Below, piece by piece: positions 7,486 to 32,780 of a stretch of DNA of 64,000 nucleotides (its first letter is position 1; each line of letters starts with the position of its first letter). A model generated the notes under the pieces. The model was not told where the DNA came from and ran no database searches. It saw nothing but the letters and a program-made list of their open reading frames with translations. The position numbers and the translations under genes were made by a program. The stretch is from an uncultured bacterium. GTDB lineage: Bacteria > Verrucomicrobiota > Lentisphaeria > Victivallales > UBA1829. Location of the stretch: contig CACZEK010000005.1 of NCBI GenBank assembly GCA_902780135.1, positions 130,839 to 194,838 on the forward strand, written 5' to 3'.

Positions 7486-10400
7486 ATGTCAATCTCTTTC
7501 AGCATCATAAAACTCTTTCTCCTCAAGGGATTTCCGTCCTTCCGCACGGGACGGCGCATTCTCCTTTTCCCGATTCTCCTGATGATTGCCGCCGCGCCGG
7601 CGTTCGCGCAGGATGAGGACGAGGAGGAGGAAGCCGTTTTCGAGGAGCAGCCGGAACCGGCGGGCCGGCAGACCGTCGCGGACACCGGGACGCATTCGCG
7701 CGACGTGTTCATCCTTTTCCCGTTCACGGCCTCCTATGCGGAGCACGTCTTCATTTCGAACGCCATTTCGAAGCACGTTGCCACGCTGGACGATTCCTAC
7801 GTGATGAAGCAGAAGGAATTCAACATCCTGGACACCTCGCAGGAAGAGATCCGGCAGCGATTCAACGAACTGAAACCCGAGCTGGACAACGGGAAGGCCG
7901 CCGCCGTGATCTGCATCGGGCAGGAGTTCCTGCCGCTTCTGGCGCGGAACGGCGACCTGATCCCGGAGGACGTCCCGGTTCTGCTTTACACCGAGAAGAA
8001 GCCGGAGGAAACCGAGCTCGGCCGCAAGAACATCGGCGGCGTGATCCTGGAAAGCCCGGTTGAAAGATCGCTCGACCTGATCTTCCAGGTATTCCCCGAC
8101 ACGAAGCGCATCATCCCGCTTGCCGGACGCACGGAAACCGGCAGGGAGTACATCCGGGAAGTGGAGGAAATCCTGGCGAAGTCGCATCCCGGCGTGGAGT
8201 GCCTGGTCATCGACAACCGCAGCGTCGATACGCCCGAAATGATCCGGCGCGTGAGCGAATCCGGCAAGGGATCCGCCGTGCTGTTCCATTCGTGGTACGG
8301 ATTCGACGCCATGAACCTGGTCTCCCTGTCGTTCTTCATGGAGCGCCTCTGCCTCAATCCCGACGTGCCGGTCTTCGCCGTGAACGACTCGATGTTCGCG
8401 TATCCCGTCGCGGGCGGCGTGATTTGCCCGTCCGATGCGGCGATCGAAAAGCTGATCGGCCTGCTTGACCAGGCTTTGACGACCGGCATCGACCTGAACG
8501 CGGCATGGGAAACGGTCGAGGGCAAACGCATCATCACCGCCAGCAGTTTCCAGCGGTTCGGGATCAGCCGCCGCACCAACTCGAACAATCTGGTCGTGGG
8601 CATGGATTCGCAGTCGATGTTCCGCCGCGAAAACGCATACGCCCTGGTCGCCGTGACTTTCTCCGTGGTCCTGACCATCGCCCTGCTCGGCTATATCGTC
8701 GTCTGGGACCATTACCGCCGGCGCCTCCTGAAGCTGCTCCGAGCCATTTTCAAGCAGATCCCGAGCCGGATCGTCGTCGGCAGCCGCAACGGCATCGCGC
8801 ACTTCATCCACCTGGGCAAGTTCGGCGAGGGAAGCGGCGTCGTCCATTTCCCCGTGAGCGAGCTCCCGGAATACGCGGACGAGACGTTCCGGCATGCCTG
8901 GGACGAGGTTTTCGCGACCGGAGAGACGCAGAAATTCCAGATGGCAACGGGCAGCCGGCACCGCGCCGTGGAAATGGCGCTCTTCGAAGACAAAGACATA
9001 TTCGGGCACGAGACGGCGTTCTGGATCTCCCACGACGTAGAGGAACTCCTGCAGGCACAGAACGAGCTGAAGGCGGGCCTTGAAAACCAGAAAAAGCTGA
9101 ACGATCTTTTCGACGCCTCGCTGAAAAAGCTTTCCGCGGACGCCACCGCGGTCGACATGACCAACGACGTGCTGTCCCTTATCGTCCGCAGCGTGAAGGA
9201 ACACATGAAGGCGGACTACTGCTGCATCATGCGGTACAATTACGAAAAGAACGGCATGGAGATCTTCGTCAGCGAGACTTCCGACAAGCTGTCGGTCGAC
9301 GAGAAGAAGCATTTCATCCCGTTCCCGGAGAAGAAGGACGACAAGCTGATGGCGCGCCTGCAGAACCGCATGCCGGTCGTGCTGAACGACTTCACCGCAT
9401 CGCTCTTCATGAGGCCGGAAGACGCGGAACAGCCCGACAACAAACGTCCGAAAAAGGTCAGCATGTGCTTCTCGCCGGTCTTCATCGACGGCAAGCTCTG
9501 GGGACATCTTACCGCCGTTTACCGGAAGGCAAAGCACGAATTCTCCGACCAGTATCTGCAGTTCCTCCAGGGCACGGCGCACGTCGTGGAAGCCATGCTC
9601 GAATACCGCTTCATCCACTCCAAGCTCGAACGCGGCGAATACGAAAAGCAGCTTATCATGGAAAACCTGCCGCTGCCGCTGATCCTGCTGGACCGCGAGC
9701 TCAACCTGATCCAGAGGAACTCCGCGGCGCAGAAGGACCTGCTGGATTTCCCGGATTCCCTCAGGAACAAGCTCTGCCACACGGTCTTCTGCAAGGCGGG
9801 CGCCCCGCCGGAGGACTGCCCCGTCCGCGGCGTCCTGGCCGACCACAAGCCGCACGTGAAATCGCTGGAGTTCGGCGGCAAGGACTATATGGTCCACGCC
9901 TACCCGATCCTGATCGGCGGCGAGCTCGCGAACATCCTGCTGGCATGGTTCGACATGACCGCCGAAAACGAGACCCAGCGCAAACTCGAGACCGCGCTCC
10001 GCGAGGCGAAGGACGCCAGCAAGGCGAAGAGCCTCTTCCTCGCCTCCATGAGCCACGAGCTCCGCACGCCGCTGAACGCCGTGATCGGATTCTGCGAGCT
10101 GCTGCAGAACAACGCGCTTTCGAGGGAAAGCCAGCTCGAATATCTCAAATCCATCTCCGTCGCGGGCCATACCCTGCTGGACCTCATCAGCAACATCCTC
10201 GACACATGCAAGCTCGAAACCGAACAGATCGAGCTTCAGAACGAGAAGACCGACGTCCACAAGATCCTGACCGACATGGTCGGCATGTTCAAGTCGCTGG
10301 CCGAGAAAAAGCAGCTCGCGCAGCCGCTGGTGATGCCGGACGACATGCCGTTCGTGGTGCTGGACCGCATGCGCCTGCGCCAGGTGCTGGTGAACCTGCT

Positions 10401-15858: not shown

Positions 15859-15962
15859 ATATAATGCGCGACGTTTCCTTGGAGATATTGCGCCTTGATT
15901 CCCGAACAACGACATACAAACATAACATAGGCAAACAACACCAATTGAAAGGCAAGCTCAAA

Positions 15963-16841
15963 ATGAAACATTGCAAACAGGCGTTTACCCTCATTGAGCT
16001 GCTGGTCGTCATCTGCATCATCGCGATTCTGGCGTCCATGCTGCTTCCCGCTCTGCAGAGCGCACGTGAGAGCGCGAGCACCGCGACCTGCGTCAGCAAC
16101 CTCGGACAGTTCTCCAAGGCATACCAGATGTACGCCACCAACTTCAACGACTTCATGCCCAACCTCACCGCCACCCAGAGCGGCGGCAGCTGCACCTGGG
16201 AACGCGCCCTGATCGAGGCGCTCGGCCAGGACTACAACAACTCCCCCTTCAAAAAGTCCTTCTTCTGCGACGCCGACTCCTCCAGCGACGACACCTCCAC
16301 CGACGCCTACGGCATGCCGAAGAAGAAATCCTACAGCGTCAACAACCTGAAGGACGTCATCCATCCCCGCATTCCGCTTACGCTCGGCCCCGGCGGCAAG
16401 GAAGAAACCTCCAGCTCCGGCGAAGGCTACATCAGCGGCAACAAGACGACCTCCGTCTATACCGCTTCCGACCTGATCGTCATCGGCGAAAACGTTTCCA
16501 AAGGCAACAGCTTCGGCGCCGCCAGCTTCAGCACCTCGGATTCCGACGCGAACAGCCCGGGTTCCGCCAGCCCCGCACAGCAGCAGGTCTCCCTCTACAA
16601 GCGCCTCACCTCCCACACCACCGCCGGCGAACTCTACCTCGACGGCCATGCCAAGCACATCAAGCCGCAGCAGACCCTCCCCGCGCAGGAAGGCCTCCAG
16701 CTCGCCCAGAAGTACCAGTACTCCGACTCCGGCCCGACCGGCTGCGCCACGGAAGGACTGGGAAGCTGGACCGATTGCCCGAAGCGCAAAACCGGCAACA
16801 GAAGTTGCCCCGGCGATTCCACCTGCCACAAGAAAAACTGA
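15963..16841 (+). CDS. Prepilin-type N-terminal cleavage/methylation domain protein (DUF1559-like)
   Basis: Start at ATG 15963. [38 protein letters not shown] is a classical type IV pilin-like leader plus helix. The C-terminal [17 protein letters not shown] resembles the H-X9-DG motif (spacing here is 8). This family is hugely expanded in PVC bacteria. Confidence 0.85.
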
Positions 16842-16906
16842 TTTCCCGTTTGCCTGCGGGACTCTTCGGATTACAGCGTCCCGCAGGTGGCACATACGCT
16901 GTTCAG

Positions 16907-16942
16907 GCGGTTTCGATCCGTGTTCGAAGCCGCTTTTTTTTT
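16907..16942 (+). terminator. Rho-independent terminator after the prepilin-type gene
   Basis: gcggtttcga-tccgtgt-tcgaagccgc (9 of 10 bp paired) followed by T9 (16934-16942). A perfect 10-bp hairpin cctgcgggac...gtcccgcagg precedes it at 16853-16887. Confidence 0.65.
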
Positions 16943-16968
16943 CACTCTTCCCGATCAGGAGGTCCAAC

Positions 16969-18423
<1,455 letters not shown>

Positions 18424-24872: not shown

Positions 24873-27800
24873 TTACGCCGGCGGCGCGGCGAGCAGCACG
24901 AATTTGCGGTTTTCGCTGTCCAGGCCGATGCGGGAATCGCCCCACGCCGAATTGAGGTTGCAAACCGTCATGTAGCTGGGGACATCCCATTCCAGTTTCG
25001 CCCAGTCGGGACGGAGCCTGGCGGCGCCGAGCATGCCGCTGCTGTCCGTCTCCTGGATCCAGACCGTGAGCCCGGCGTTCCGCAGCTCGCTCACGTCATA
25101 CATGCCGGACTCCTGAATATCCAGGGCGAAGAACAGTTTTTCGCCCTGTTCCGCCGTATGGATGTCGGCGAAATTGGTATCCGAAATGACCTCGAACGCC
25201 CTCTGCTGCGTCACGGTCAGCGCGTATTTCGTGTTGTTGTCAATGCAAAGGCTGTTGCGGGAGTCGATCTCCACCAGATAGTCGCCGGAATAGAGCTCGA
25301 GCTCCGGGATGACGGCGATGCCCATTTCGTTCAGCGTCGCGGACTTGATCAGTTTGCCGGACATGGAGCGGATGTTCAGCGTCGCCTCCCCGGCATCCCC
25401 GGTGAGTTTGAACTCGTACCGCCCAGCGCATCCGTCGTCCACCGTCAGCAGATAGGCATCCGAATCATTCCGGTATCCGACCCATCCATTGACCTGGACC
25501 GGGTCCTTCCCGGCGGAGATGGTCCACGTGTCTTCATCAAGCGGGGAATCGCTGAAAGCCGCGAATTGCAGATCCAGGGAGTAATCGGTATTGTCCCCGC
25601 CCCTGCCGTTGTCGCGGGCGCCGACCCGCACATAGAAGTTGTTCGTGACGATGAACTGATCGAGAAGCATCCCCGAGGCGGCGGAGGCGTCGACCGAGAA
25701 CGACCTGACCCGCTGGTACTGCCCGTTTGCGCTGCTCTGGACAAAGAGGTCCACGACCAGCTCGCCGGTAAGATTCTCCGGGTCGATCACGGAGAGGCTC
25801 AACTCGCCCGCATCCTCCAGCAGATAATCCCAGACGTCATCTTCGTCAAAAGCGCCGACCCAGCTTTCCATGGTTTCGGAATACATGCCCTTTTCGTCCA
25901 CGCTGTCCGGCAGCGAGACGGCGCCGCGTTCCGGCCTCAGGTTGGGGAAGACGTCGCCCGAAATGGAGAATGAGAGTTCGGACGCCGCCCCGTCCTTTCC
26001 CGTTCCGGCGGCGGTGAAATAGTAAAGCCCGTTGTCCAGCAGGAGATCCTCGGCCGTGTCGGAGGCGGCAGTCGCCTCCCCGTCGGTCACTTCAATGACC
26101 ATTATCTTTTCGTCGTGCCCCCGGCGTATTCCGTCCACCTGGTACAGGGTCAGCGTGCCGGTGAACCCGCCGAAATCCGTCTTTTTCCAGTCGTAGAGTC
26201 CATCCATCAGGGAAAAGCGGTCGGTGGAGACGGAGTCCGAACCGGCGGCCAGGGCAAGCGTGAAATCGGAGAAGAAGCTCACCGCGTCATCCCACTCCGC
26301 GATGCCGGGCTCGATCGCCCTGCCGTCCGCGTCGTACGGCGTGACACGGAACGAATAATGACCGGCGGCGAGATCCAGTTCGATGGCGGTTCCCGCAATG
26401 CCCCGCAGAACGGCGCTGTCGTTCCAGTCCTCCTCCACGGCGTATTCGAGATCGTAGGAGCTCGCGCCTTCGACGGCGTCCCAGCTCAGGGCTTTGCCGG
26501 AGCCGATGGTCACGACAGCCGGAGCGATCGTCTTCGAGACGGTGTTGTCTTCCTCGAAGATGCCTTCGTCGACCGCATTTTCCCGGTCCAGCCGGACGGA
26601 CAACGCCGCGAGTCTCCCGATGAAGTCCTGCGGAATGCCCGCCGCCAGCTGAAGCTCCCGGCTTTCTCCGGCGGCAAGACTGATCTTCGCCGACGCGACG
26701 ACCGGATCGCGGTCGTTGAGGATCTCGCTTTCGCTGAGGACGACATCCACCGAGAATTCGCCGGAATCCTCGGTGCCGAGATTCGCCACGGTGCAGAAGA
26801 CGTTCGCCGTCCGCAGGTCCGCCGCCTGGAACTCCAAGCGATAATCCGTCACTTTCAGGGACGCAGTACGGATGGCGATTTCCACTTCATCCGTTTTGGT
26901 GCTGTAGGCGACCTCCGCGCAGTTTGTGCTCTGCGCCATGACGTAGAACCTGTATTTTCCTCCCTGGATCTCTTCCGGCAGGTCGATTGTGACCTTGCGA
27001 TATTCGTCTCCTTCGGTCGCTTCCAGATAGTCGAGGATCATCCCTTCGTATTCGTCCGCGGGCTGGTCGGCCCGCTGCATGTAGAGCGCGGCCAGATAGC
27101 TGTCACCGGTCGCATGAGCCTGATATTCCACCGTGACGGATTTCCTGTCCACCGACACGACCCGCACACCGGTCTCGATGGGATCGCCCGCCTCGGCAAA
27201 CATCACCACCTCGCCATTCCGGTTGCGGCTGCCGTAGGCATCCAGCGTCCAGTCGCCCTGTGCAGCATTGTCGATCCTCAGTTCAAGTTGCGAGAAGCTG
27301 ACCTGTTTCACCGTGATCGGCGTGTTCAGGTCAGTCGATCTGTATATGCTGCCGTCCGGTCCTGTGAGAACCCATTCCAGGTCGGTGAGAGAATGCTGCA
27401 CGGCGAGGGTGACGTATGTCCGGCCCTCCGCCGCGAGTTCGGTCGAGGTCCAGCTGTAGCTGCCGATCTTGTCCCCCGATATTTTTTCCGGGATGTCATC
27501 CTCCGGGGCGACAGTACGGAGCATGCGCTTGGCGCCGGAGGACGCGTCTTCCAGCCGGGTGTTGGCGCAGGTGTGGGCGAGGCCGCGGTTGGACAGGTCG
27601 AGGAACCAGCTGTTGCTGACGTTGACGCCGACCTTGACGAAGAGAACTTTGACCTGCGCCCGACCGCCGGCCGAGATGGAAATCGTCTTCCGCGAACCGG
27701 CCTGGTTGTAGATAACGCTGACGCCGCCGCCGACATTGACGCCGACCCAGTTGACCTTCAGGGCGGTGAAATCCCACTTGAAGGAGCCGTCCAGCGCCCC

Positions 27801-29021
27801 TCTGACGGTTAAATCGCCTCCGCCCCAGCAGACCGAACCGGAGATACGGAAATTGAAGGTCTCGGATTTCCTGGTCCCGACAGAAAGACTGATCTCATTT
27901 TTGCCGTCTTCGTATTTCCATCCGCCTTTGACTTCCAGCAGACCGACAAATGTTCCCTCGACGGACAGGCTCATGTTCTGGAAATTGCTGGAAATCTCTC
28001 CGAACACGGCGGCCTCGGCCACGCGGAATTTGCCGTTCTTCAGCCCGATCATTTTTGCGAATTTCGACGACAGGGCGTTGAAGTCGATCTGAGGCCCGAA
28101 CGCCACACCCAGACCGGGCGCGTAGGTCTGCACCGATTCGGCCAGGCCCGAAACGCCCATCTTGATCTGCGTGAAGATCACGGGGCCGATCGGGATCTCG
28201 CCCTTGACTTCGAGGGCGATGTTGTTGAGTCTGCCGCTCTTGAACCCCACGCGTCCGACCACCAGCCATTCCGTGCCGGAGGGAACCGTGAACTTGACTC
28301 CGAGCCCGACTTCCCACTCGGACTTGAACGCATTGTACGCGCCGATCGCGCCGACCTTCAGGCCGCAGTTCACGCCGATCTTCTTCAGCCAGTCGAGGTC
28401 CAGCAGACCGGTCGCGGTGAAGACATACTCCTTTTCCTGCTGGATGCCGGACCGGTTGTACATGAAATACAGGCCGTTGTTCGCACCTGCCTCCCCTATG
28501 AAATCCTTGCGCTGGATGATGTTGCCGGAAAGGTCGTAGAACTTGTTGCGGGTGCGCATCGCCTCCTTTCTTTCCTCTTCCGTTTCCGGCTTCTGGTTGA
28601 AGATCTCCAGAGGATCGGTCAGGGTGTCGGGATCGTACTCGCCGAGGAGCGTGGCGGAGACCGTGAGGATCGAGCCGATCCGGACGTACACGATCCCCTG
28701 GACCACCAGAAGCTTTCCGGTAAGAGCGCCCTCGTCGCTCCTGACATCCACGACCGAAACGTAGACGCTGTTCAATTCCACCTGGAACGCCGTGGCGTCG
28801 ATGCCGAACGTGCCGCCGATGCTGAAGATGCCGGGGTCTTTGTCCTTGTAGCTTTCCAGCAGGTCGTCTATGGTGGAAGGAACGTCTTCGCCCTCCGCTG
28901 ATTTCGTCCCGACCGAGATCGTCACGGGGTTTACGGTATTGAGTTCGTCATAGGATTCTGAGAAATCGACGTTTGGAGTCATGCGCGGCGCCCTCTGTTG
29001 AATGGAAACTCGAAATGACAT
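24873..29021 (-). CDS. Giant (1382 aa) repeat protein: beta-rich N-domain, CARDB-like, FN3-like and PPC-like modules; no signal peptide
   Basis: Single clean ORF. CARDB-like FCTVANLGTEDSGEFSVDVVLS...LAAGESRELQL. FN3-like LSWDAVEGASSYDLEY. PPC-like DSDAYLLTVDDGCAGRYEFKLTG...GDYLVEID. An alternative start at ATG 28982 has a GAGGG RBS, whereas ATG 29021 sits only about 10 nt after the predicted -10 box. Confidence 0.85.
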   Translation of the reverse strand: MSFRVSIQQRAPRMTPNVDFSESYDELNTVNPVTISVGTKSAEGEDVPSTIDDLLESYKDKDPGIFSIGGTFGIDATAFQVELNSVYVSVVDVRSDEGALTGKLLVVQGIVYVRIGSILTVSATLLGEYDPDTLTDPLEIFNQKPETEEERKEAMRTRNKFYDLSGNIIQRKDFIGEAGANNGLYFMYNRSGIQQEKEYVFTATGLLDLDWLKKIGVNCGLKVGAIGAYNAFKSEWEVGLGVKFTVPSGTEWLVVGRVGFKSGRLNNIALEVKGEIPIGPVIFTQIKMGVSGLAESVQTYAPGLGVAFGPQIDFNALSSKFAKMIGLKNGKFRVAEAAVFGEISSNFQNMSLSVEGTFVGLLEVKGGWKYEDGKNEISLSVGTRKSETFNFRISGSVCWGGGDLTVRGALDGSFKWDFTALKVNWVGVNVGGGVSVIYNQAGSRKTISISAGGRAQVKVLFVKVGVNVSNSWFLDLSNRGLAHTCANTRLEDASSGAKRMLRTVAPEDDIPEKISGDKIGSYSWTSTELAAEGRTYVTLAVQHSLTDLEWVLTGPDGSIYRSTDLNTPITVKQVSFSQLELRIDNAAQGDWTLDAYGSRNRNGEVVMFAEAGDPIETGVRVVSVDRKSVTVEYQAHATGDSYLAALYMQRADQPADEYEGMILDYLEATEGDEYRKVTIDLPEEIQGGKYRFYVMAQSTNCAEVAYSTKTDEVEIAIRTASLKVTDYRLEFQAADLRTANVFCTVANLGTEDSGEFSVDVVLSESEILNDRDPVVASAKISLAAGESRELQLAAGIPQDFIGRLAALSVRLDRENAVDEGIFEEDNTVSKTIAPAVVTIGSGKALSWDAVEGASSYDLEYAVEEDWNDSAVLRGIAGTAIELDLAAGHYSFRVTPYDADGRAIEPGIAEWDDAVSFFSDFTLALAAGSDSVSTDRFSLMDGLYDWKKTDFGGFTGTLTLYQVDGIRRGHDEKIMVIEVTDGEATAASDTAEDLLLDNGLYYFTAAGTGKDGAASELSFSISGDVFPNLRPERGAVSLPDSVDEKGMYSETMESWVGAFDEDDVWDYLLEDAGELSLSVIDPENLTGELVVDLFVQSSANGQYQRVRSFSVDASAASGMLLDQFIVTNNFYVRVGARDNGRGGDNTDYSLDLQFAAFSDSPLDEDTWTISAGKDPVQVNGWVGYRNDSDAYLLTVDDGCAGRYEFKLTGDAGEATLNIRSMSGKLIKSATLNEMGIAVIPELELYSGDYLVEIDSRNSLCIDNNTKYALTVTQQRAFEVISDTNFADIHTAEQGEKLFFALDIQESGMYDVSELRNAGLTVWIQETDSSGMLGAARLRPDWAKLEWDVPSYMTVCNLNSAWGDSRIGLDSENRKFVLLAAPPA

Positions 29022-29030
29022 ATTTTTGAT

Positions 29031-29059
29031 AATGTAACCCGTCTTATCCGCTTTTTCAA
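29031..29059 (-). promoter_or_regulatory. sigma70-like promoter for the 1382-aa gene
   Basis: Reverse strand: TTGAAA (29059-29054), 17-nt spacer, TACATT (29036-29031). Confidence 0.4.
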
Positions 29060-29108
29060 CTCCGTTTTTTTTGTTTTTACCATTTTTTCAAATATCGCAT
29101 TCCGGCTC

Positions 29109-29136
29109 TTGCATTTTGAAAAGCCCGTGTTATAGT
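29109..29136 (+). promoter_or_regulatory. sigma70-like promoter for the 1190-aa gene
   Basis: TTGCAT (29109-29114), 16-nt spacer, TATAGT (29131-29136). Confidence 0.45.
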
Positions 29137-29207
29137 AATACCGAATTGTTTGAAAACATATTTCTGCAAACGGCAGTCCGGTTCAACGGACCAATACGAG
29201 GTGTTTT

Positions 29208-32200
29208 ATGAGTTACGAAGTCGCTTCCGGGCAGACATCAAACGGCATTTCCCTGGAAAATGATTTCATGTATGTCTTCGACGGCGGCACGGCGAACACG
29301 ACTACCGTGAACACTGCCGGAAGCATGTATATCGAAGGCGGCGGCACGGCAAACAATACCGTCGTGAACGAGTCCGGCAGCATGTCGGTCGCCGGCGCCG
29401 CGAACAAGACCGTCGTAAACGGCGAGGGAGACTGGGGAAGCGGCAAAGTGACCGTTTGCGACGGCGGCGTGGCGAATTCGACCACGGTGAACAGCGGCGG
29501 TATCCTCCAAATCGAAAAAAACGGCCTCGCCGAAACGACCGAAGTCAACGATCACGGCAGCATGCACGTCTTCAGCGGAGGCATGGCGAACTCGACCGAA
29601 GTCAACCATGGCGGCAGCATGTACGTCAACGCGGGCGCCGCGGCCGGCGCGGTCACGGTGAACAGCAGCGGAACGCTGGAAGTCCAGCCGGGCGGTTCGG
29701 CGGCCGCGATCCGGGAAAACGGCGGATGCGTCATCGTCCCGGACGGCGCGAATGCGTCTTTCGTCGCAAACAGCTTCGGCGGACTCGTCCTGTCGAACGG
29801 GACCGCCACGCTGCATACGGGGACCACAGCCACATCCGCCGCCGTGGACGGTTTCGGCACGCTGTTTGTTTATGCGGACGGCATGGCGCAATCGACGACG
29901 GTGAACAGCGGCGGGAAACTGTATGTTTCCGCCCGCGGCACGGCAAACGACATTACGCTGAATGAATTCGGCATCATGAGCATCTGCAGCGACGGCGTGG
30001 CAAACACCGTCATCGTGAACAGCGGCGGCACGGCAAACGTCGACAAGGGCGGCATCATGAAAGACGCCGTTGTGAACGACTGCGCCGGCGTGTATGTTTC
30101 CGGGATTGTGAGCGGGACCATCGTTAACGGCGCCGACGAATGGAATTACGGCGAGCTGTTTGTCCATGCCGGCGGCACGGCGAATTCGACCACAGTGAAC
30201 AGCTATGGCGGGATGAGCATCGACGAGGGGGGCAGAGCGGACGGGGTGTCCGTGAACGGCGGCGGCAGCCTGGTCATTTCCTCCGGCGCCGTGGCGGCCG
30301 GGATCGTGGAAAACGGCGGATACGTCAGTGTCGCCGACGGCGCAAGCGCGGCTTTCGTCGAAAATACGTTCAGCGGCATGACGCTGTCGGGCGGCGCTGC
30401 CACTCTGCACGCGGGAACGACCGCGGAGTCCGCCGCGGTTTACACCTCCGGCGCGTTGTACGTCTACGACGGCGGTGCGGCGAACGGGACCGTCCTGACC
30501 GGGGCAGACAAGGAGGACTGCGCCGAGATGTACATTTACGACGGCGGCGCGGCGAACGGGACCACCGTGAACGGCGGCGGCTGGGTCTACGTCGGCGGCA
30601 CGGCCGGTTCGACGGTCGTGAACGGCGACGGTTATCTGGGGATCGCCGACGGCGGCAAACACACCGGCACGCTGACCATAGCCGAGGGCGCGGTGGTGTC
30701 GGCCTATGCCGGGAGCGTCATCGACTTCGACGTCTCGGCCGCGGCCCCCGGAAGCCCGGCGCAGGTCAGTGACCTGTCACGGATCCAGGGAACGCCGTTG
30801 TACACGCTCACGGTCGGCGCATCCCAGGCGGACGGCACGTACGGTCTGGCGGAAGGGGCGGCCGGATTCGACAAGACGATCACGGTCGTGAACGCCTCCG
30901 GCACGACGCTCGGTACGCTCACGGCCGACGGCGGCACGCAGGTGTTCGACGGGGTGAAATACACGCTCGCGCTGAACGATTCCGAACTCGTCGTGACGGT
31001 CGGCGATCTTCTGCCCGAAAACGGCCCGGAGGAGCCGCTGAACAACACGCTGCTGATCGACAAGACCAAGGTCAACAAGGACGTGACGGAGGAATACGGG
31101 ACGGTCCTGACCGCGCCCGGACAGGAGATCCGTCTCGACAAGGCAGGAACGGTCGACTACGGCGAAAACCATTACCACAACCACGTCGGGAAATCCGCCT
31201 CCGAGCAGGATGCCGATTACAAGCTCGACTACGCGAAGATCGTGCTGAAGCACGGCGCGAAGCTGAGTTTCCACGCCGAGGCGACGGCGGCGGCGACGTT
31301 CACCGTGTACGGCCTCACGCAAAACGGGGAGACCGGGAAATACACGCTGAAGAAAATCCAGACGCTGAATCTCAAAAACAGGAACGGCGTGTTCACAGCC
31401 GACTCCCCGAAAACGGTCCTGCTTGAAAAGAGCGGAACGGACAACAGGGAGTATTACGTCTCCATGCAGTTCGCGGATAAGAAAGCCGACGAGGCGTATT
31501 ACAACGTGACGCTGAACGGCGCCGACACGGGAACCCTGTTCTACTCCGACAGCGACGACGGCTGGAACAACGGACCGCTGCTGGTCGAAAACGGCAAGGG
31601 CAAGGTCCCGGATGCGGACCTGATCGCGAATCTCAGGGAGACGAAGATCGCGGAGTCCGGCGCGCAGGATGTCGCGTTCGACACCAACGAAATCAAGGCT
31701 GACGGTGCGCCGGAGATCGAGGGCGGCTGGAACAACTTCGTCGGCTTCGAAGATCCCGACGATTACGCGAAATTGACGATGACGCAGCCCGTGAAACTGA
31801 CATTCATGATCACGGCGACGGACAAGGTGAAACTCGTCGTTTACAAACTGAATAAAGGAAGCAAATGGAGTTCGACGTCCGTCAAGTCGAAGGAACTCAC
31901 CCTGAACTCGAAGGAAAAGAAGGCGGGGTTCGCGACGCGCACGCTGGAAGTCAATCTTGCCCGCCTTGTCGGGGAGGAGAACACGGGATACTATGTCTCG
32001 GTTCAGAGCACGAACGCATCGAGCGGCGGCAAAGCGTGGTACGACGTGAGCGTCGACAGCATCGTGTACGCCTCCGACTACGGCACGAACAACAAACTCT
32101 TCCCGGACAAGAAGAACAAGGAGCTCAATCCGGAACTTGAGCGGACGACCGTGAATCCCGGAGAAAAGAAGTCCGTCGTCATGGAAGTCGCGATCGAGGG

Positions 32201-32780
32201 CAAGGACGACGTCGCGGTCGAAAAAAAGGTCGGCGAAACGACCTACCGGAGCTTCGTCGGCTTCGGCGACGAATACGACTATGCGGAGATCGTCTTCAAC
32301 GGCGCCGGGAAATGCGTCTTCACGGTCGACATCTGGGGCACGGAAAAAGCAAGTGCGAAATTCACGGTCTACAAGCTCACGTTCAAGAGCGGCAAGTGGA
32401 CGAAGAAGTCGCTCGCCACGCTCACGCTCAAGAATACGAAGGGCGCCGTCGACGGATATGCTTCCGCCTCGGACGGCAGGACCGTCGAGATCGAGAAGAA
32501 GACCGACGACGCCACGAGGTACTTCGTCTCCATGCAGTCCGTCGATGCGAAGAAAGGCAAAGAGGTGTACTACAACATTTCCGCCGGAATGCCGTCCGGT
32601 TCGTCGGATTCCGCGCTCGCCATGCCGGAGACGGATGTGCCCGCGGACAGCCTCGCCATGCCGGACAGTCTGAGCTTCGGGCAGTACGACACCGCGGACG
32701 CCCTCGCCGGAACTTGCCTCGATCCCGCTTCGGACAAGCTCTTCGGCGAATCCGGAAACGGCCTCCTCGCCTCGCTGTAA
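29208..32780 (+). CDS. Giant (1190 aa) protein: AIDA-type beta-helix repeats plus three PPC-like modules; no signal peptide, no translocator
   Basis: GAGGTG RBS. The first 500 aa or so are about 19-residue units (GGTANTTTVNTAGSMYIEGGGTANNTVVNESGSMSV...). Three modules of about 120 aa follow, sharing DYAKI/DYAKL/DYAEI, FTVYGL/VVYKL/FTVYKL and YYVSMQ/YYVSVQS/YFVSMQS...YYNV. Confidence 0.85.
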   Translation: MSYEVASGQTSNGISLENDFMYVFDGGTANTTTVNTAGSMYIEGGGTANNTVVNESGSMSVAGAANKTVVNGEGDWGSGKVTVCDGGVANSTTVNSGGILQIEKNGLAETTEVNDHGSMHVFSGGMANSTEVNHGGSMYVNAGAAAGAVTVNSSGTLEVQPGGSAAAIRENGGCVIVPDGANASFVANSFGGLVLSNGTATLHTGTTATSAAVDGFGTLFVYADGMAQSTTVNSGGKLYVSARGTANDITLNEFGIMSICSDGVANTVIVNSGGTANVDKGGIMKDAVVNDCAGVYVSGIVSGTIVNGADEWNYGELFVHAGGTANSTTVNSYGGMSIDEGGRADGVSVNGGGSLVISSGAVAAGIVENGGYVSVADGASAAFVENTFSGMTLSGGAATLHAGTTAESAAVYTSGALYVYDGGAANGTVLTGADKEDCAEMYIYDGGAANGTTVNGGGWVYVGGTAGSTVVNGDGYLGIADGGKHTGTLTIAEGAVVSAYAGSVIDFDVSAAAPGSPAQVSDLSRIQGTPLYTLTVGASQADGTYGLAEGAAGFDKTITVVNASGTTLGTLTADGGTQVFDGVKYTLALNDSELVVTVGDLLPENGPEEPLNNTLLIDKTKVNKDVTEEYGTVLTAPGQEIRLDKAGTVDYGENHYHNHVGKSASEQDADYKLDYAKIVLKHGAKLSFHAEATAAATFTVYGLTQNGETGKYTLKKIQTLNLKNRNGVFTADSPKTVLLEKSGTDNREYYVSMQFADKKADEAYYNVTLNGADTGTLFYSDSDDGWNNGPLLVENGKGKVPDADLIANLRETKIAESGAQDVAFDTNEIKADGAPEIEGGWNNFVGFEDPDDYAKLTMTQPVKLTFMITATDKVKLVVYKLNKGSKWSSTSVKSKELTLNSKEKKAGFATRTLEVNLARLVGEENTGYYVSVQSTNASSGGKAWYDVSVDSIVYASDYGTNNKLFPDKKNKELNPELERTTVNPGEKKSVVMEVAIEGKDDVAVEKKVGETTYRSFVGFGDEYDYAEIVFNGAGKCVFTVDIWGTEKASAKFTVYKLTFKSGKWTKKSLATLTLKNTKGAVDGYASASDGRTVEIEKKTDDATRYFVSMQSVDAKKGKEVYYNISAGMPSGSSDSALAMPETDVPADSLAMPDSLSFGQYDTADALAGTCLDPASDKLFGESGNGLLASL

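Follow-up and report, generated by a model that had tools for sequence, protein, structure and literature searches.

A conserved divergent gene pair of a ruminant-gut Victivallales bacterium encodes large proteins without signal peptides that may be exported by way of a C-terminal tail

In a 64-kb stretch of DNA from an uncultured ruminant-gut bacterium of the Victivallales (Lentisphaerota), hereafter the window, two giant genes are transcribed back-to-back: a minus-strand gene for a conserved partner protein (the minus gene and minus protein) and a plus-strand gene for an AIDA-repeat protein (the plus gene and plus protein). Comparison with homologous contexts provides good evidence that the genes are co-regulated and are maintained by selection as a pair. 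A sequence-only reading of the window had seen no export signal in either product, whereas we find that both end in the conserved tail of a Lentisphaeria family in which RTX repeats often precede it. The reading that we favour, tentatively and as somewhat short of probable, is that the two are co-regulated and co-inherited large acidic proteins of the cell surface or extracellular space, exported by a type I-like route via the C-terminal tail.

The open reading frame (ORF) listing places the minus gene at 24873-29021 (minus strand, 1382 amino acids, aa) and the plus gene at 29208-32780 (plus strand, 1190 aa), separated by a spacer of 186 bp (29022-29207), which is exactly the arrangement previously described. 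The G+C content of the window is 58-68% and its genes are recognisable by a third-position G+C above 0.8; by codon-position GC both giant ORFs score as real genes. Alignment of homologs indicates that the true start of the minus gene is most likely Met14 at 28982, giving a protein of 1369 aa and, consequently, a spacer of ~225 bp. The features of the locus are:

24873..28982, minus strand: minus gene, conserved partner protein, isoelectric point (pI) 4.4, no signal peptide; the ORF reaches 29021, the Met14 start being probable
28851..28982, minus strand: variable acidic N-terminal leader of the minus protein, residues 14-57, poorly conserved, predicted disordered
27588..28850, minus strand: N-domain of the minus protein, residues ~58-478, 21 predicted antiparallel strands (AlphaFold2, Foldseek), rare family
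26535..26828, minus strand: CARDB domain, residues 732-829 (E=9e-8)
25173..25901, minus strand: two beta-sandwich modules, residues 1041-1167 and 1161-1283, of the same type as the plus protein modules
24876..24950, minus strand: C-terminal tail ...GLDSENRKFVLLAAPPA, conserved in the minus protein family
29031..29059, minus strand: minus gene promoter, sigma-70-like, TTGAAA-17-TACATT, within the invariant ATAATGTAA box (promoter scan)
29109..29136, plus strand: probable plus gene promoter, TTGCAT-16-TATAGT (conservation; below the threshold of the consensus scan)
29176..29191, plus strand: hairpin GTCCG-GTTCAA-CGGAC in the 5' leader of the plus gene, just before the GAGGTG ribosome-binding site
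29208..32780, plus strand: plus gene, AIDA-repeat protein, 1190 aa, pI 4.55, no signal peptide
29208..30927, plus strand: conserved N-terminal module, residues 1-573, ~25 rungs of 19-residue AIDA-type beta-helix and a short cap, co-inherited with the minus gene
31053..32612, plus strand: exchangeable cargo, three homologous beta-sandwich modules (616-796, 807-971, 980-1128), no Pfam family
32613..32777, plus strand: C-terminal region and tail, SALAMPETD...LSFGQYD...ASDKLFGESGNGLLASL, candidate secretion signal

The pairing of the two genes is evident from a conserved 6-kb block, 24883-30927, that spans the minus gene and the spacer, reaches ~573 codons into the plus gene and recurs at 75-80% nucleotide identity in L001, L003/4, L005/6 and L009/10 (L-numbers denote fetched homologous contexts and P-numbers relatives of the plus or minus protein). 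Homology ends at the minus gene stop codon on one side and inside the plus gene on the other. Protein-level searches identified the divergent pairing also in L014, L017, L019, L022 and L024, and in all it is present in 10 of the 14 informative contexts, even where the identity of the minus protein has fallen to 55-61%. By tblastn, the AIDA N-terminal modules linked to this cassette are 47-63% identical to that of the window, vs. 29-40% for the paralogs tested, and they form an orthologous group of their own. The cargo of the plus partner differs by context, comprising C39, CARDB, C10, C11 and RTX sequences in a protein of 2665 aa, C10, C11 and RTX in one of 2160 aa, C39-like and CARDB domains in one of 1830 aa, FG-GAP in one of 906 aa and the three modules in the 1190 aa of the window; the outer flanks of the cassette differ between contexts as well. 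Taken with the promoters in the spacer, the conserved block is good evidence that the two genes are co-regulated and that selection acts on them as a pair.

It is unlikely, in our estimation, that the two are functionally uncoupled, i.e., unrelated surface-protein genes that in one clade happen to have a promoter region in common. Four distant homologs of the minus gene without an AIDA neighbour (L002, L013, L021, and L025) are consistent with such a view, as is the number of AIDA paralogs, which makes chance adjacency possible. However, pairing, orientation and spacer promoters have been kept in ten contexts spanning minus protein identities down to 55-61% despite the turnover of flanks and cargo, and the orthology of the linked AIDA N-modules likewise argues against mere adjacency. 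Of the two-gene system that had been proposed, the conserved divergent unit therefore stands, in 10 of 14 contexts; the pairing is not universal.

In L017 an integrase-like gene (8833-10146) lies directly after the minus gene homolog. This, and the fact that the flanks differ everywhere, suggest that the cassette sits at a rearrangement hotspot or is mobile.

Sigma-70-like promoters had been proposed in both directions of the spacer. That of the minus gene was returned by the scan and is conserved in six loci, with its -10 element inside the ATAATGTAA box, while that of the plus gene is sub-threshold in the scan and is supported by conservation, TTG[CT]AT...TATAGT being kept in 6/6 loci. The stem of the hairpin at 29176-29191 is retained despite base changes in L003 and L005, which suggests that it is a conserved leader element of the plus gene. 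In L014, a Victivallales metagenome-assembled genome (MAG), the spacer (~405-896) is 469 bp long and the promoter box CATAATGTAATC...TTTTTCAAC is present twice in tandem.

The N-terminal part of the plus protein is, as the sequence-only reading held, a run of ~25 AIDA-type repeats of 19 residues. Residues ~20-500 match PF16168 (E=4.2e-26) and TIGR04415 (E=1.6e-30), the repeats match the solved passengers TibA (4q1q) and Ag43 (7koh, 4kh3) with E=1e-20 to 1e-13, and the autocorrelation of the sequence peaks at a period of 19 residues. Against the full-length NCBIfam models NF033176 and NF033177 the protein scored 116 and 96 bits, respectively, ~10% of their cut-offs (1200 for each), and no autotransporter barrel family was matched at E<=0.1. 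The plus protein is thus like the type Va proteins AIDA-I, TibA and Ag43 in its strand-loop-strand repeat and right-handed beta-helix, but differs from them in having neither a Sec signal peptide nor a C-terminal 12-strand translocator, and in that beta-sandwich modules and a short conserved tail come after its helix, which begins at residue ~20. The three modules (616-796, 807-971, and 980-1128) are mutually homologous and of beta-sandwich type, and modules of this kind were found in 53-55 of the best 120 family matches; when ten module segments were searched singly against Pfam at E<=10, neither PPC nor FN3 nor any other credible family came up. As cargo, the modules suggest a role in binding or adhesion. 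The LAMPE/LAMPD stretch that had been noted behind them sits in a conserved C-terminal region of ~55 aa. The plus protein would accordingly combine an autotransporter-type stalk with what we infer to be a type I-like chassis.

The absence of signal peptides from both proteins, also claimed previously, was upheld. In the plus protein, whose N-terminus reads MSYEVASGQTSNG, no signal peptide or hydrophobic segment was found, the top 12-residue hydropathy within its first 40 residues being 0.58, vs. 1.8-2.9 in secreted proteins of the same window. No signal peptide was found in the minus protein or its 23 homologs, and all members of its family that start with Met are without a hydrophobic N-terminal segment. 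This lack is informative in both giants because several neighbouring proteins in the window carry textbook Sec signal peptides. We considered whether misassigned starts might mask a signal peptide in both genes and rejected this, as the ORFs open at the earliest start after the upstream stop, and none of the homologs has a signal peptide either.

A protein search returned 995 relatives of the plus protein, those with names being "AIDA repeat-containing protein" from Lentisphaeria MAGs; counts of tails, signal peptides and RTX repeats for this family refer to the best 120 of the 995. Among these, none of the complete proteins has a signal peptide, most start a few residues before the first rung of the beta-helix, and 116 of the 117 homologs that start with Met have no hydrophobic N-terminal segment. 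Their C-terminal halves vary, containing RTX blocks, FG-GAP/VCBS, CARDB, and peptidase C10, C11 and C39-like domains. Their ends, by comparison, agree (e.g., ...IFEESGKGILASL, ...DDKSAWQSLLA, and ...WQNIATLA), almost every complete member closing with a hydrophobic residue, L and A followed by 0-3 residues, and the regular expression [LIVMF][LIVMA]A.{0,3}$ fits 71/120 members vs. a background of 1.6% at random positions; among the 37 genes of the window it fits only the two giant ones. RTX nonapeptides occur within the last 400 aa of 33/120 paralogs, as confirmed with Pfam PF00353 and NCBIfam RTX_toxin, and in the NCBIfam alignment they fall on the repeat block of RTX hemolysins. When the final 32 aa of 27 paralogs with RTX repeats were made into a profile, it matched residues 1167-1188 of the plus protein with 11.2 bits, the best of 2000 shuffles reaching 4.1. 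Two relatives, P0090 and P0114, have a papain-like domain at the N-terminus in place of the AIDA repeats and yet the same tail, and therefore the feature common to the family lies at the C-terminus and not at the N-terminus. The tail profile, used as a query, retrieved only short contig-end fragments, labelled Victivallales and Kiritimatiellae, and in five paralogs NCBIfam gave RTX_toxin as the only match, with no named type I target-domain model. We found no relevant description of the AIDA family, or of secretion in Lentisphaerae/Victivallales, in the literature that could be searched.

Two further observations concern members of this family. In L015 (6299-8258; also L016, 2420-4379) 4 nt separate a 565-aa AIDA ORF, equal in size to the N-module, from a downstream 85-aa ORF corresponding to the ALAMPE...LA tail region, which represents either a split gene or a minimal form made of stalk and tail. 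In L012 (14992-20656) a 1486-aa AIDA-family gene is immediately followed, on the other strand, by a gene for a reverse transcriptase (RVT_1, 372 aa), which may belong to a diversity-generating retroelement that acts on this family member.

The minus protein is the truly unknown element of the pair. A word-indexed search found 24 relatives and an exhaustive profile search of 1.84 billion representatives found 14 clusters, which marks the family as rare; most of the relatives share length (~1365 aa) and architecture. Its pI is 4.41 overall, with a neutral N-domain of ~420 residues (5.8) and a very acidic remainder (4.2) made up of an array of Ig-like domains, a CARDB domain and the beta-sandwich modules. 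Residues ~60-480 are Gly- and Val-rich, in agreement with the ~480 aa of Gly-rich amphipathic beta-strand sequence noted previously. A first AlphaFold run on the N-terminus, with close homologs only, had a predicted local distance difference test score (pLDDT) of 45 and gave meaningless fold matches, and was replaced by an AlphaFold2 run with distant relatives (pLDDT 71, predicted template-modelling score 0.67) in which there are 21 strands of 12.5 residues on average, 16 of them with strong alternation of hydrophobicity. The top Foldseek matches of this model, in the PDB and the viral library BFVD, are all outer-membrane barrels (the ushers FimD and PapC, porins, FadL, LptD, and autotransporter beta-domains) with E~1e-5 and template-modelling scores (TM-scores) of 0.2-0.3. 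No sequence family model was found for the N-domain, nor did the minus family profile match anything among PDB sequences. Because the TM-scores are only 0.2-0.3 and the model is moderate, closure of the barrel is unproven, and we predict with moderate confidence that the domain is outer-membrane-barrel-like in its local architecture. In the order of its parts (N-terminal barrel-like domain, linker, Ig-like chain), the minus protein is reminiscent of the inverse autotransporters intimin and invasin (type Ve), but it has no signal peptide, no LysM and no IAT_beta match, and ~21 predicted strands in place of 12.

Downstream of the N-domain, the CARDB assignment made from the sequence was confirmed (E=9e-8), while the FN3-like and PPC-like labels found no confirmation in Pfam. 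A profile of the plus modules matches the minus protein at 1041-1167 and 1161-1283 with 22-25 bits, vs. <=7.4 bits for ~400 decoys, and thus both proteins share a type of module, as had been suggested; BLASTP between the two gave nothing significant, and the family profiles alone revealed it. The ends of the minus family are also of the kind described above (...KFVLLAAPSA; ...SLLASL in P0152; ...ITMLA in P0149; ...GLAASV in P0155), and in one distant member, P0148, RTX repeats precede the end ...ALLASRGYSI. Because of the same class of tail, the same modules and the RTX repeats of P0148, the minus protein looks like a fellow substrate of the route taken by the plus protein rather than its translocator or channel.

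From these observations we infer an export route, a surface location, an anchoring and a physical cooperation of the pair, as follows. Neither protein would use Sec. Both would be exported by a type I-like system, composed of an ATP-binding cassette (ABC) transporter, a membrane fusion protein (MFP) and an outer-membrane factor (OMF) and encoded elsewhere in the genome, that would recognise the conserved and probably uncleaved C-terminal tail, i.e., a hydrophobic residue, L and A followed by 0-3 residues (here ...LFGESGNGLLASL and ...KFVLLAAPPA). The plus protein, as one member of a greatly expanded family, would present exchangeable C-terminal cargo on an N-terminal AIDA-type beta-helix stalk. 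By analogy with LapA and RsaA, type I-secreted surface proteins that are retained or anchored through their N-terminal part, the N-domain of the minus protein may tether it to the cell envelope, and the minus protein may cooperate with the conserved beta-helix module of the plus protein.

RTX proteins undergo type I export via a non-cleaved C-terminal signal preceded by repeats (PMC6891781), and in combination with the association of RTX blocks and tail this makes a C-terminal-signal route the most economical one for the whole family. Both window proteins are also acidic (pI 4.55 and 4.41) and without signal peptide, as are type I substrates. The simplest reading is thus most likely a type I-like route, and the non-textbook export route that had been suggested is not required. 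In their size, acidity, lack of signal peptide and modular extender and ligand-binding domains the proteins are similar to RTX adhesins and other type I substrates (LapA, MpIBP, SiiE, and RsaA). Such substrates carry their export information at the extreme C-terminus, and genuine RTX blocks stand immediately in front of this tail in paralogs of the plus protein and in one relative of the minus protein. Retention at the cell surface through an N-terminal part is likewise a known design among type I-secreted proteins (PMC6891781, PMC8277102). The differences are that the window proteins have no RTX repeats and no linked ABC/MFP/OMF genes, that the stalk is an AIDA beta-helix where RTX adhesins have Big/Ig tandem repeats, and that the putative retention domain of the minus protein, a barrel-like sheet of ~420 aa, does not resemble the retention modules of LapA type, no LapG/LapD-type genes being seen.

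Several observations weigh against the type I-like reading. Neither window protein has RTX repeats or a match to PF00353. Neither the window nor about a dozen fetched contexts showed any ABC, MFP or TolC-type gene, and no type I genes were found beside seven family members. For these two reasons the type I-like route is given here as a proposal. The AIDA-family tail profile fails to detect the tail of the minus family, which is assigned to the same class only because of its end motifs and of one RTX-bearing relative (P0148). We know of no type I substrate with a domain that resembles an outer-membrane barrel, and the model of the N-domain is itself only moderate (pLDDT 71), with TM-scores of 0.2-0.3. 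The four distant minus gene homologs that have no AIDA neighbour have been described above, and in two contexts (L009/L018 and L019) the cassette lies next to type VI secretion genes. It had been stated that no type I system, translocator or type IX tag lies nearby; this is correct for secretion genes in the window, of which none was found in its 64 kb, but the conserved C-terminal tail had been overlooked.

The tail might alternatively be the tag of an undescribed sorting or secretion pathway of Lentisphaerota/Kiritimatiellota, with a role like that of the type IX C-terminal domain of Bacteroidota, a proposal that we find improbable. It would account for the tail being common to members with unrelated cargo and even different N-termini, for the many tail-bearing proteins that have no RTX repeats, and for the type I genes not being seen in any context; the labelling of the tail-carrying fragments as Victivallales and Kiritimatiellae and the silence of the searchable literature on the AIDA family also agree with it. 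However, the close association with RTX blocks already indicates type I, and no candidate machinery lies beside the genes. Secretin genes do occur a few kb from AIDA-family genes in L005 (1-4485) and L008 (17451-21052), with T2SS (type II secretion system) E- and F-type genes also in L005, but these two cases are anecdotal and may be chance. The type IX tag proper is absent: there is no Por_Secre_tail at the protein end, and the sole match to TIGR04183 is internal to the minus protein (1207-1256 of 1382) and sub-threshold (15.9 bits vs. a cut-off of 23).

A connection to type VI secretion is suggested by two of the contexts. On the contig represented by L009 (1-4879) and L018 (14903-18745) the minus gene homolog is followed by a 780-bp ORF-free gap and then by tssC-tssE-tssF-tssG, and in L019 (3-2935) the AIDA partner P0056 is followed by tssA (ImpA_N), tssB (VipA) and tssC. 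As the two TssC proteins are 53% identical and the corresponding minus homologs 74%, these are probably two different type VI loci, and two separate neighbours of this kind are probably hard to attribute to chance, leaving an unexplained association. The cassette could then be tied to type VI secretion, its signal-less proteins being cargo, effectors or accessory parts, with the beta-helix for delivery and the C-terminus as effector. Substrates of type VI systems have no signal peptides, and a conserved N-terminal part with a swappable C-terminal part is the pattern of polymorphic effectors (PMC3482391). We nevertheless doubt this explanation. There is no type VI gene in the 64-kb window, L001, L003, L005 or L017, and the gap before tssC in L009 sets the genes apart. 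The only Pfam families matched are AIDA and CARDB, and no PAAR, VgrG, Hcp or known type VI N-terminal marker was matched in either protein by Pfam or NCBIfam at E<=0.1. The cargo (RTX, CARDB, FG-GAP, and beta-sandwich modules) is extracellular in type, no immunity-like gene follows, and a family of ~1000 matches with sizes up to 2665 aa would be unusual as type VI cargo. A polymorphic-toxin reading was rejected, as the cargo domains do not belong to toxin families and no immunity-like gene comes after them.

A more far-reaching proposal joins several of these elements: the tail would mark an undescribed Sec-independent pathway for export and sorting in Lentisphaerota and Kiritimatiellota, and the minus protein would be a signal-less, self-inserting outer-membrane barrel that anchors or hands over its partner's beta-helix, an analogue of two-partner secretion built from unrelated parts and possibly operating with the type VI loci. 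We judge it distinctly unlikely.

Finally, we consider it very unlikely that the pair works as a Sec-independent counterpart of two-partner or split-autotransporter systems, with the N-terminal barrel of the minus protein seated in the outer membrane and translocating or anchoring the beta-helix of the plus protein. The N-domain has 21 predicted long amphipathic strands and its top Foldseek matches are all outer-membrane barrels, and the co-inherited part of the plus gene is exactly the N-terminal beta-helix module, comparable to the two-partner secretion (TPS) domain and its TpsB. The locus has the following in common with type Vb systems (TpsA/TpsB, CdiA/CdiB): a beta-helix protein with a conserved N-module and a swappable C-terminus, adjoining a gene for a predicted outer-membrane-type barrel. 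Against this, both proteins are without a signal peptide and would thus have no known path to the periplasm and the BAM machinery, there is no match to TPS (Haemagg_act), POTRA, ShlB, autotransporter or inverse-autotransporter families, and the genes are divergent and not in an operon. The barrel-like minus protein bears ~900 aa of extracellular-type domains, and its family has the tail and modules of the presumed substrates, with RTX repeats in one member. AIDA paralogs in L008, L011, L012 and L015 have no such partner nearby, distant minus gene homologs exist without an AIDA neighbour, and the TM-scores (0.2-0.3) are low.

Rumen and gut Lentisphaerota have received almost no study. Genomes of this kind devote much of their coding capacity to a family of ~1000 detectable giant AIDA-repeat proteins, many of which have the C-terminal tail in common, often behind RTX blocks, and this offers a testable rule of secretome prediction for the phylum. 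Under the type I-like reading, an autotransporter-type beta-helix would have been re-used on a different export route, and the cassette of partner, promoters, beta-helix module and exchangeable cargo would be a natural domain-swapping system in surface proteins. The signal-less barrel-like domain of the minus protein is, if the fold prediction holds, a puzzle for outer-membrane protein biogenesis.

The region is present in public bovine, sheep and goat gut metagenome runs, and the genome matches to the locus are Victivallales MAGs from goat gut. In one metatranscriptome run from bovine gut, contigs with 95-100% identity extend over most of the minus gene and into the 5' half of the plus gene, part of which they cover (window 24970-30376); the plus gene cargo from 30657 onward is uncovered in the same run, which may reflect a strain with different cargo. 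Near the locus, neither the Rfam nor the tRNA scan gave a match. The remaining genes of the window are of the housekeeping kind (thiamine synthesis, hybrid histidine kinase, ThyX, MatE, esterases, MFS, MurJ, YchF, UvrC, and others). The gene product at 15864-16841 has a prepilin-type N-terminal methylation motif. The 591-aa aldo/keto reductase-ferredoxin ORF (16648-18423) has a twin-arginine translocation (TAT) signal at residues 107-126, and its real start is therefore probably ~100 codons downstream of the listed one.

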